20,875 nucleotides of DNA, from IMG/VR virus record IMGVR_UViG_2703718798_000003. The stretch is one strand, 5' to 3'. The position numbers and the translations under genes were made by a program. Below, in pieces: positions 20,115 through 20,580 of the stretch. The stretch is from a virus. Lineage: Duplodnaviria; Heunggongvirae; Uroviricota; Caudoviricetes. The notes below the pieces were generated by a model that was not told the DNA's origin, ran no database searches, and saw only the letters and a list, made by a program, of their open reading frames with translations. How positions within the stretch are numbered: the stretch's first letter is position 1; each line of letters begins with the position of its first letter.

Positions 20115-20320
20115 ACTTCCTGAAATCTGAAAAATTACTCTTATCAGAGAAGAGCGTCAGGAACACGATCGGCATCACTGTTTCTGCAAACTTCCCTGTG
20201 GCAGTCTTTATTCGCCATATAACGTAGCACTAAAGGTCTTCATTAATTTTTCCAGTATAGTTAATACTCCTTGTACCGGGGGTGGTGATACCCCCGCTTT
20301 TTTCGTTATCCCTGTTCCCT
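20115..20320. repeat. Copy 1 of a diverged ~200 bp tandem direct repeat, ending in a plus-strand terminator-like hairpin
   Basis: Shares with copy 2 the blocks TTCC(T/G)GAAATCTGAAAAATTA, CGGCATCACT, a GGGGG..GGTGAT..CCCCC hairpin followed by a T-run (CGGGGG-TGGTGATA-CCCCCG-CTTTTTTCG at 20277-20305) and GTTAT(C/T)CCTGT(T/G)CCC. Confidence 0.6.
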
Positions 20321-20386
20321 TAATCACACTGCCAGGCGCCACAAAACACATCAATTGTGGCTGGTATGGAAACACCAAAAACTCTC

Positions 20387-20580
20387 ACTTCCGGAAATCT
20401 GAAAAATTATCCATATCAACAGGATGCTCTGGAAATGAGACCGGCATCACTTTCAGGATTAACTTTTCCGTGGCACTCTGTATCCGTGTAGGTAAGGTCT
20501 CTTCACAATAATTACATAATCAACGCAGTTCATGGGGGAGGTGATGGCCCCCCATCTTTTTGTCTGTTATTCCTGTGCCC
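20387..20580. repeat. Copy 2 of the diverged tandem direct repeat; overlaps the 3' end of the upstream minus-strand gene
   Basis: Same conserved blocks; hairpin GGGGG..CCCCCC + ATCTTTTTG at 20534-20562; period to copy 1 ~257-272 bp depending on block. Contains a 41-codon plus-strand ORF (20366-20491) without a good SD. Confidence 0.6.

Follow-up and report, generated by a model that had tools for sequence, protein, structure and literature searches.

Two diverged copies of a cargo-gene 3' end, probably brought in with a tail-fibre cassette, form a tandem repeat in an E. coli prophage

The window analysed here, a 20,875-nt stretch of Caudoviricetes DNA (IMG/VR record IMGVR_UViG_2703718798_000003), contains between positions 20115 and 20580 two related units that were previously unannotated. 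We consider it probable, at roughly 70%, that these copies are diverged alleles (A and B) of the stub, 3' UTR and terminator of a cargo slot, and that they were orphaned by the exchange of a tail-fibre cassette. The feature itself is genuine and is conserved; should the units prove silent, as we expect, it is an ordinary one. On this interpretation an unannotated 480-nt gap in the late operon would be accounted for without new genes, and the plus-strand terminators within it would be fossils of the cargo slot and no evidence for new transcription units.

Among the complete E. coli genomes searched, positions 20090–20600 of the window are 100% identical to strain 48, which was isolated from deer faeces (NZ_CP166879.1). 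In the annotation of the source genome, every annotated gene in the 8.5 kb around the repeat lies on the minus strand, which upholds within that span the earlier note's description of the surrounding genes. In minus-strand order, these genes encode an adaptor, a tail fibre (787 aa) and a DUF4376 tail-fibre assembly protein (223 aa), followed by the gap and then by a hypothetical protein (541 or 563 aa), a tail-tip fibre and Lom. From the hypothetical protein onwards, the genes match 933W-like Stx phages, for example P13374 (Sepvirinae) and phiSTEC1589-Stx1c. The gene for the hypothetical protein is ORF67-like, and its product, which has 563 aa from the ATG at 20089 or 541 aa from the RefSeq start at 20024, is 99% identical to the product of gene 58 of phiSTEC1589-Stx1c; a Pfam search with this product matched no family. 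On the other side of the gap, the DUF4376 gene is the gene with which the repeat module travels.

The earlier note had described a tandem, diverged direct repeat of about 200 bp, with copies at about 20115–20320 and 20387–20580, and had proposed a self-alignment as a check. Both the repeat and, approximately, its coordinates were recovered. A repeat search identified two in-register blocks at a spacing of 272 nt, one of 32 nt (20115–20146 and 20387–20418, 88% identity) and one of 13 nt (20167–20179 and 20439–20451, 92% identity). Local alignment of 20061–20345 with 20346–20660 gave a score of 64, compared with a mean of 18.0 (sd 2.2, maximum 30) for 1000 first-order Markov resamples of copy 1, which approximately keep its dinucleotide content. 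Within the same register, the core (20115–20214 versus 20387–20486) is ~73% identical. The terminators and the ~15 nt past them align too, with a score of 37 versus 15.8±2.2. Because homology to copy 1 extends to ~20578, copy 2 overlaps the stop codon of the DUF4376 gene (20567–20569), as had been claimed from the first reading. Tandem Repeats Finder reported no array in the region because the copies are too diverged. Coordinates of all features are collected in Table 1.

Table 1. Features of the repeat and of the two genes that flank it (positions in the window).
Feature	Positions	Strand	Remarks
Conserved block 1, copy 1	20115..20146	+	Spans ykgJ stop codon and first UTR nucleotides; repeat search
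Stub 1, last 45 nt of ykgJ-like gene	20086..20130	+	TGA 20128–20130 (frame ...LPEI, then stop); sequence alignment
Type A 3' UTR body (copy 1)	20131..20276	+	Homology
Predicted intrinsic terminator A	20277..20303	+	Stem-loop 20277–20296, then C + T6; terminator scan and folding
15-nt remnant	20305..20319	.	GTTATCCCTGTTCCC versus GTTATTCCTGTGCCC at 20564–20578; homologous to sequence across the assembly-gene stop
Spacer (67 nt)	20320..20386	.	Contains ATG (20366) of 41-codon ORF; found only in A-B tandem loci
Stub 2, last 16 nt of ykgJ-like gene	20387..20402	+	TGA 20400–20402; starts block 1 of copy 2 (20387–20418)
Type B 3' UTR body (copy 2)	20403..20531	+	Homology
Predicted intrinsic terminator B	20532..20561	+	Stem-loop 20532–20555, then C + T5; ends 5 nt before the stop of the convergent gene
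ORF67-like late gene of 933W-like phages	18398..20089	-	Immediately downstream of the repeat (minus strand)
DUF4376 tail-fibre assembly gene, 3' part	20567..20875	-	223 aa, runs off the window; WP_044191827.1; PF14301, 3.5e-18

Each copy ends, on the plus strand, in a G+C-rich stem-loop with a U-run directly after it, the sequence pattern of a Rho-independent terminator, and the hairpins and T-runs reported in the earlier note were confirmed. Terminator A has an 8-bp stem with 6 G-C pairs, followed by C and U6 (-14.9 kcal/mol, z -2.85), while terminator B has a 7–8-bp stem followed by C and U5 (-12.2 kcal/mol). Five terminator-like sites were found in the region, compared with 0.8±1.0 in shuffles. 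Additionally, a hairpin with 5–10 U is kept in all three types of unit that we distinguish below (A, B and C). We take these ends to be intrinsic terminators, which would act on plus-strand transcripts.

Comparison with related prophages indicates what lies upstream of these terminators. Matches to the window repeat in complete E. coli genomes are mostly to copy 2 alone, and in many cases the annotation has them touching a "YkgJ family cysteine cluster protein". At two lambdoid prophage ends, locus L003 (next to potB) and locus L002 (next to tRNA-Ser), a plus-strand YkgJ-family CDS ends at a TGA equivalent to those of stubs 1 and 2. Since the CDS ends at this equivalent position, each copy appears to be a ykgJ 3' stub of 16–45 nt followed by a 3' UTR of about 150–165 nt and a Rho-independent terminator. 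The ykgJ-like product has 109 aa and matches PF03692 at 5.7e-12. Stub 1 is 84% identical to positions 2996–3040 of L003, the 3' end of its ykgJ, and to positions 3186–3228 of L005, and the type A UTR body is 92–94% identical to the L003 unit that directly follows the intact ykgJ-like gene. In loci whose tblastn match to DUF4376 extended to the final residue, the end of that match lay at a nearly fixed distance of 7–8 nt from the end of a 160-nt unit-B query (~20562). The earlier note had suggested a pair of small plus-strand transcription units. Their assignment to the plus strand stands, but their independence is not supported, since in related loci a protein-coding cargo gene has the same sequence as its 3' UTR and terminator.

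The gene found upstream of the module varies among loci. An intact ykgJ-like gene precedes it in L003, L010, L018, L107, L108, L172 and L174, and a decayed ykgJ in L002 and L173. In further loci a ykgJ stub (residues 77–109 or 86–109) is preceded by another gene: a dinI-like gene, for example in L154 (PF06183, 4.6e-20), which carries a promoter-like TTGACA-18-AAAAAT and a LexA-type box, TACTGTATACAAACACAGTA, or, in another locus, an Arc/Mnt-like gene (PF03869, PF11423). Nothing is left upstream in L170 and L175, and the stub, UTR and terminator are still kept. Because different genes precede the same stub, UTR and terminator, the module appears to be a 3' end that the various occupants of a cargo ("moron") slot have in common, the slot itself lying at the outer end of these prophages. 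In its normal setting, in lambdoid E. coli prophages, the module sits at the extreme end of the prophage, converging on the DUF4376 gene and ending a few nucleotides from its stop. There it would end the transcripts of whichever gene occupies the slot, be it ykgJ-like, SOS-box dinI-like or Arc/Mnt-like. We infer this function because morons, as Juhala and colleagues are said to have described them in 2000 (cited in PMC4104026), are promoter-gene-terminator units. Termination at this point would keep lysogen-expressed transcription from entering the tail-fibre genes antisense.

Pattern and protein-guided scans of IMG/VR contigs, together with extra genome loci, yielded 25 unique unit sequences, which fall into three diverged types. 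Type A is like copy 1. Type B, the common type, is like copy 2; of 5426 complete E. coli genomes, 127 carry it (median two copies per genome), in every case without annotation. Type C is carried by a different set of E. coli prophages, in 23 genomes, and has the same layout as A and B, in which ykgJ, UTR and terminator converge on the assembly gene. The A-B tandem was found at a query coverage of at least 80% in about 21 genomes. It has the same 272-nt register at lambdoid prophage ends (L003, L170) and in 933W-like phages (the window, L004, L008, L011 and L013), and L009 also carries it. The comparison with other prophages that the earlier note had called for therefore yields a conserved arrangement of blocks and hairpins, which argues against the strain-specific duplication raised there. 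A recent tandem duplication was also considered and rejected on the basis of the ~73% core identity, the occurrence in ~21 genomes and two phage types, the 92–94% conservation of A and the variability of B.

A scan of 185,579 species genomes, in which E. coli is represented by a single genome, with the block-1 pattern returned 81 matches, all in unrelated taxa. These look like chance matches, so that scan gave no sign of the block outside E. coli prophages. A metagenome scan with the type B terminator returned only two loci, both known variants. Mean pairwise identity among units is 0.87, versus 0.90 for the adjacent 150 nt of coding sequence. Unit identity does not correlate with assembly-gene identity (r=0.13), indicating that the loci are recombination mosaics. 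Types A, B and C would define a small family of conserved 3' UTR/terminator modules common to different lysogen-expressed cargo genes.

The order of elements in two loci bears on the origin of the tandem. A single ykgJ allele (100% amino acid identity) is followed in L003 by A, the spacer, the 16-nt stub and B, and in L107 directly by B, which suggests that A and the spacer were inserted at block 1 as a second, diverged allele. When the spacer was searched by blastn and tblastx against all loci collected, matches were obtained only in tandem loci. The A-B tandem would have arisen once, when recombination inserted the second allele at the conserved block, and would have been inherited as a unit from then on.

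Comparison with P13374 places the window repeat within a larger exchange. P13374 matches the window only to ~20144, a match that includes the 45-nt ykgJ stub upstream of ORF67; after the stub its sequence is unrelated and contains no terminator and neither unit body. Residues 51–449 of the window tail fibre are 96% identical to P13374 ORF65, and the two proteins diverge beyond this point, at the conserved ...KGIVQLSS..TKAATPKAVKAAM motif. Given the divergence after residue ~449 and the end of the P13374 match at ~20144, replacement of a cassette is most likely. A 933W-like (Sepvirinae) prophage would have acquired the tail-fibre C-terminus, the assembly gene, B, the spacer and A, through one crossover inside the tail-fibre gene (after ~residue 449) and another at the ykgJ stub/block 1, which was already present in 933W-like phages. 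The tandem most likely reached the window as a passenger of this tail-fibre cassette, with the direction of transfer and the order of events inferred.

Two features define a moron, namely its own promoter and gene, and insertion among core genes with variable presence. The second is seen here, as the module converges on late tail genes and the cargo varies among loci. The first is seen in related loci (L154, and L003 and L172 with intact YkgJ, PF03692) and not in the window, where only the 45-nt and 16-nt ykgJ stubs are left and both cargo gene and promoter are absent. With gene stubs, no gene and no promoter, the window copies are moron remnants and not morons. They are most likely transcriptionally silent relics and would at most stop stray antisense transcription. 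The feature is of modest interest unless plus-strand RNAs are detected.

Three observations count against explaining the units as UTRs only. The stub, UTR and terminator persist without any cargo gene in L170, L175 and the window, the UTR alternates between conserved and hypervariable segments, as a functional RNA or a promoter spacer would show, and a promoter-like site, described below, recurs at a homologous position in all types. It is possible, although we regard it as unlikely, that each unit gives rise to a short Hfq-type plus-strand sRNA of ~55–90 nt ending at the terminator, released from the cargo 3' UTR by processing or initiated at an internal promoter with the conserved (G/A)TG(G/A)CA block as its -35, and that the tandem represents two paralogous sRNAs. 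Each type has a good intrinsic terminator with 5–7 U, preceded by an A/U-rich stretch that is predicted to be unpaired, and in type B a hypervariable segment of ~25 nt adjoins a final ~60 nt that hardly vary. The module also persists after loss of the upstream gene. Additionally, all types carry at a homologous position a -35-like (G/A)TG(G/A)CA with a -10-like hexamer 16–19 nt later. In type C and in the L004 and L154 variants of B no promoter-like site scores higher than this anchored one (9/12; ATGGCA-16-TATGAT in type C and GTGACA-18-AATACT in a B variant), which scores 7–8/12 in A and B. A precedent exists in prophage sRNAs of 51–60 nt, which have conserved 3' regions and lie at moron sites (PMC4104026).

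Several results argue against an sRNA, however. The putative promoter reaches only 7/12 in both window copies, and a promoter scan found no plus-strand promoter-like site of at least 9/12 in 20090–20566. Some B variants require a 19-nt spacer, and A/T-rich DNA readily yields such matches; we treat the anchored site as a lead and not as evidence. Sigma-54 and LexA-box readings of the conserved TGGCA and CTGT motifs were examined by eye and rejected, as the consensus spacing does not fit. When the 25 unique units were analysed with RNAalifold, the terminator was the only fold shared by A, B and C, and its G-C pairs are invariant, with no compensatory changes, so that neither covariation nor a conserved fold beyond the terminator was seen. 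Folding of the 149-nt unit bodies is no better than that of shuffles on either strand (z -0.91, +0.50, -0.66, +0.63). Rfam 15, which includes AgvB (RF02702), AsxR (RF02703), Esr41 and STnc100, gave no match at E≤1 in 19900–20875, and an Rfam search of one type C locus gave nothing beyond chance-level matches. Four Pas probe sequences (PMC8550237 Table S6) are absent from the window. The units are no more conserved than the neighbouring coding DNA (the identities given above), and their complementarity to window transcripts consists only of 10–12-mers, about what chance would give by a rough estimate. We are similarly doubtful that A, B and C represent an undescribed sRNA family at the outer end of E. 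coli lambdoid prophages, driven by a weak internal promoter or cut from the 3' UTR of the gene in the slot (an SOS-inducible dinI-like gene among the candidates) and kept after cargo loss for the regulation of host or phage mRNAs; if they did, the window tandem would hold two paralogues with different target specificities. The UTR/terminator family offers a cheap target for tests of 3'-UTR-derived sRNAs in RNA-seq data from non-O157 STEC.

The elements could instead act on the minus-strand late transcript, as 3' stabiliser or processing sites after the assembly gene or as a regulatory leader of the ORF67-like gene, which we judge to be quite improbable. In the loci examined, hairpin B does follow the DUF4376 stop at a distance of a few nucleotides, and it travels with DUF4376 and not with a particular cargo, but tight convergent packing alone gives the same geometry. 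The complements of the hairpins are stable in minus-strand folds, yet they have no U-run on that strand, and minus-strand folds are no better than shuffles (z -0.66, +0.63). While there is a minus-strand promoter-like site at 20435–20406, its -10 element GATAAT is GATGAT in most B variants. Furthermore, P13374 expresses its ORF67 homologue behind a 167-nt spacer that has neither unit.

There is very little likelihood that the units encode small proteins, whether the peptides proposed in the earlier note or the short ORFs that recur in type B. The 41-codon ORF noted at 20366–20491 is indeed present, but its counterparts in homologous tandem loci have only 11 or 24 codons, and the similar peptides of the two copies reflect DNA homology and not coding, as the frames are broken in homologues. 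Short ATG ORFs recur in type B on the plus strand (MR.PSL..LTFPW.., 15–27 aa) and on the minus strand (MNCVDYVIIVK.., 17–38 aa); the latter, however, starts within the terminator stem, behind CCUCCCCC, and has no Shine-Dalgarno sequence. Although several variants have one frame open for ~40 codons, a 1-nt indel distinguishes type A variants, ATG ORFs of at least 15 codons are lacking in type C, no ORF is common to A, B and C, and substitutions in the variable segments occur at all codon positions.

DNA-invertase crossover sites (hix, gix, cix and pix) are 26-bp imperfect palindromes that flank an invertible segment as an inverted pair. It is scarcely credible that block 1 drives tail-fibre switching as a dedicated site of site-specific recombination, whether of the invertase-crossover or the integrase type: one half of it resembles what we take to be a gix/hix half-site (TTCCTGAAATC versus TTCCTGTAAAC), and a mosaic junction between phage lineages falls at block 1 and the ykgJ stub, but the blocks are direct repeats 272 nt apart and not inverted, block 1 is not palindromic (its half-sites match at 2/11 positions, so that the resemblance is superficial, as the first reading had held), no recombinase is annotated within 8.5 kb around the repeat, orientation is uniform in all 21 tandem genomes, and ordinary homologous recombination at a shared sequence of 45–70 nt explains the junction.

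Orphaned cargo-slot 3' ends, our preferred reading, can be set beside several known systems. EcsR2, an sRNA from the yagU-ykgJ intergenic region of E. coli K-12 (PMC4350180), likewise adjoins a ykgJ gene and, at 166 nt, is similar in length. However, its RACE primer matches the strand opposite ykgJ, its sequence is unrelated to the units, and in K-12 a separate terminator directly follows the ykgJ stop codon; on these grounds EcsR2 was rejected as the identity of the units. The prophage sRNAs AgvB and AsxR (= EcOnc01-03, PMC4104026) and Pas (PMC8550237; bioRxiv 10.64898/2026.05.13.724894) are similar to the units in being prophage-borne, intergenic and convergent with phage genes, and in having a Rho-independent terminator, diverged variants, several copies per genome and conserved 3' parts combined with variable upstream parts. 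In contrast to the units, they sit at the PR'/Q-lysis region or elsewhere and not at the junction with the tail-fibre assembly gene, AgvB and AsxR being at the PR' moron site (PMC4104026). They have no sequence relationship to the units, which have a weak candidate promoter only. The units were not taken for AgvB, AsxR or Pas, given the different loci, the lack of a match to the Rfam models and the absence of the Pas probes.

Morons and cargo slots offer further parallels. Like lambdoid morons, the related loci hold a self-contained plus-strand gene with a promoter-like site and LexA box and a factor-independent terminator, in opposite orientation at the end of the late operon, whereas the window keeps only the 3' end of a moron, twice, with no gene and no promoter. 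We know of no description, in the literature known to us or searched, of a long (~150 nt) UTR common to different cargo genes in morons. The loci also resemble the cargo slot downstream of tail-fibre genes that holds eib genes and exchangeable effector loci, in that the cargo is interchangeable (ykgJ-like, dinI-like or Arc/Mnt-like), and P-Eib prophages share the adjacent assembly gene. Finally, as in the linkers of tail-fibre module exchange, short shared sequences stand at both ends of the cassette, the motif in the tail fibre at one end and the ykgJ stub at the other. Unlike such linkers, the outer boundary in the window is a fossil of an unrelated cargo gene and not a motif of a phage structural gene. 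The window would provide a concrete case of the exchange of a host-range (tail-fibre) cassette between lambdoid and 933W-like Stx-type phages, in which one crossover point is the relic of an unrelated gene.

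The ykgJ-like gene carried by related lambdoid prophages is a paralogue of chromosomal ykgJ. When the prophage gene was compared with E. coli genomes by megablast, 5074 of 5426 gave matches at 80-90% nucleotide identity. Chromosomal ykgJ encodes the C-terminal end ...GLTPL* and has its own terminator directly 3' of the stop codon. The gene in the phage appears to have been captured from the host.

Several loci carry altered or possibly decayed versions of the unit, which comprises a ykgJ stub, a 3' UTR and an intrinsic terminator. The tandem of type A and type B units disrupted by an IS66-family element lies at a potB-adjacent prophage end. 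In phage P13374, the ykgJ stub also opens the spacer between ORF66 and ORF67, together with block 1, the conserved block spanning the ykgJ stop codon; unrelated A/T-rich sequence follows. This spacer has no G+C-rich terminator and may be a decayed form of the module, which would make it the fourth version. A further divergent variant has a terminator with a T7 run but is missing block 1, and its UTR is short of the initial ~30 nt. At this locus, the chromosome/prophage junction appears to fall inside the unit.

Coordinates of the genes, units and insertions
Feature	Position	Strand or setting
ykgJ-like gene, prophage copy	L126 2400-2810	
IS66-family element (tnpA, tnpB, tnpC)	L003 3400-6200	inside unit B of A-B tandem
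ORF66-ORF67 spacer, phage P13374	L005 3191-3357	
Further divergent unit variant	L175 1400-1640	ydfJ-adjacent prophage end
Tail-fibre gene (787 aa)	L001 5191-7554; region from window 20567-20875 onward	minus strand
dinI-like gene (PF06183)	L154 2183-2500; L171 1146-1394; also L146, L152, L153, L155	
Arc/Mnt-like ribbon-helix-helix repressor gene (PF03869 + PF11423)	L161 ~2170-2500	upstream of ykgJ stub

The start of the window's ORF67-like gene is ambiguous, with candidates at ATG 20024 (RefSeq, 541 aa) and ATG 20089 (phage record, 563 aa). The latter ATG (20089-20087) falls within the ykgJ stub, so that the antisense strand of a gene relic would encode the extra N-terminal residues of the longer product. 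Elsewhere in the window, a single minus-strand ORF of 2809 aa (3345-11774) takes up 40% of the sequence.

The tail-fibre protein is a mosaic: identity to P13374 ORF65 is 96% over residues 51-449, and the two diverge thereafter. The protein contains long collagen-like G-X-Y runs and two occurrences of a linker motif, ...QKG(I/V)VQLSS...TKAATPKAVKAAM, at approximately residues 410-438 and 589-617. This motif is likely a recombination point for host-range cassettes.

Other cargo genes can occupy the position upstream of the stub. In one group of loci, a dinI-like gene with a strong -35 element plus a LexA-type box (TACTGTATACAAACACAGTA) stands in place of the initial ~75 codons of ykgJ-like sequence and shares the stub, UTR and terminator of the ykgJ-like gene. 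It is predicted to be cargo of the prophage end that is inducible by the SOS response. At another locus the same slot holds an Arc/Mnt-like gene, a placement resembling that of the P22 immI region, which lies beside the tailspike gene.
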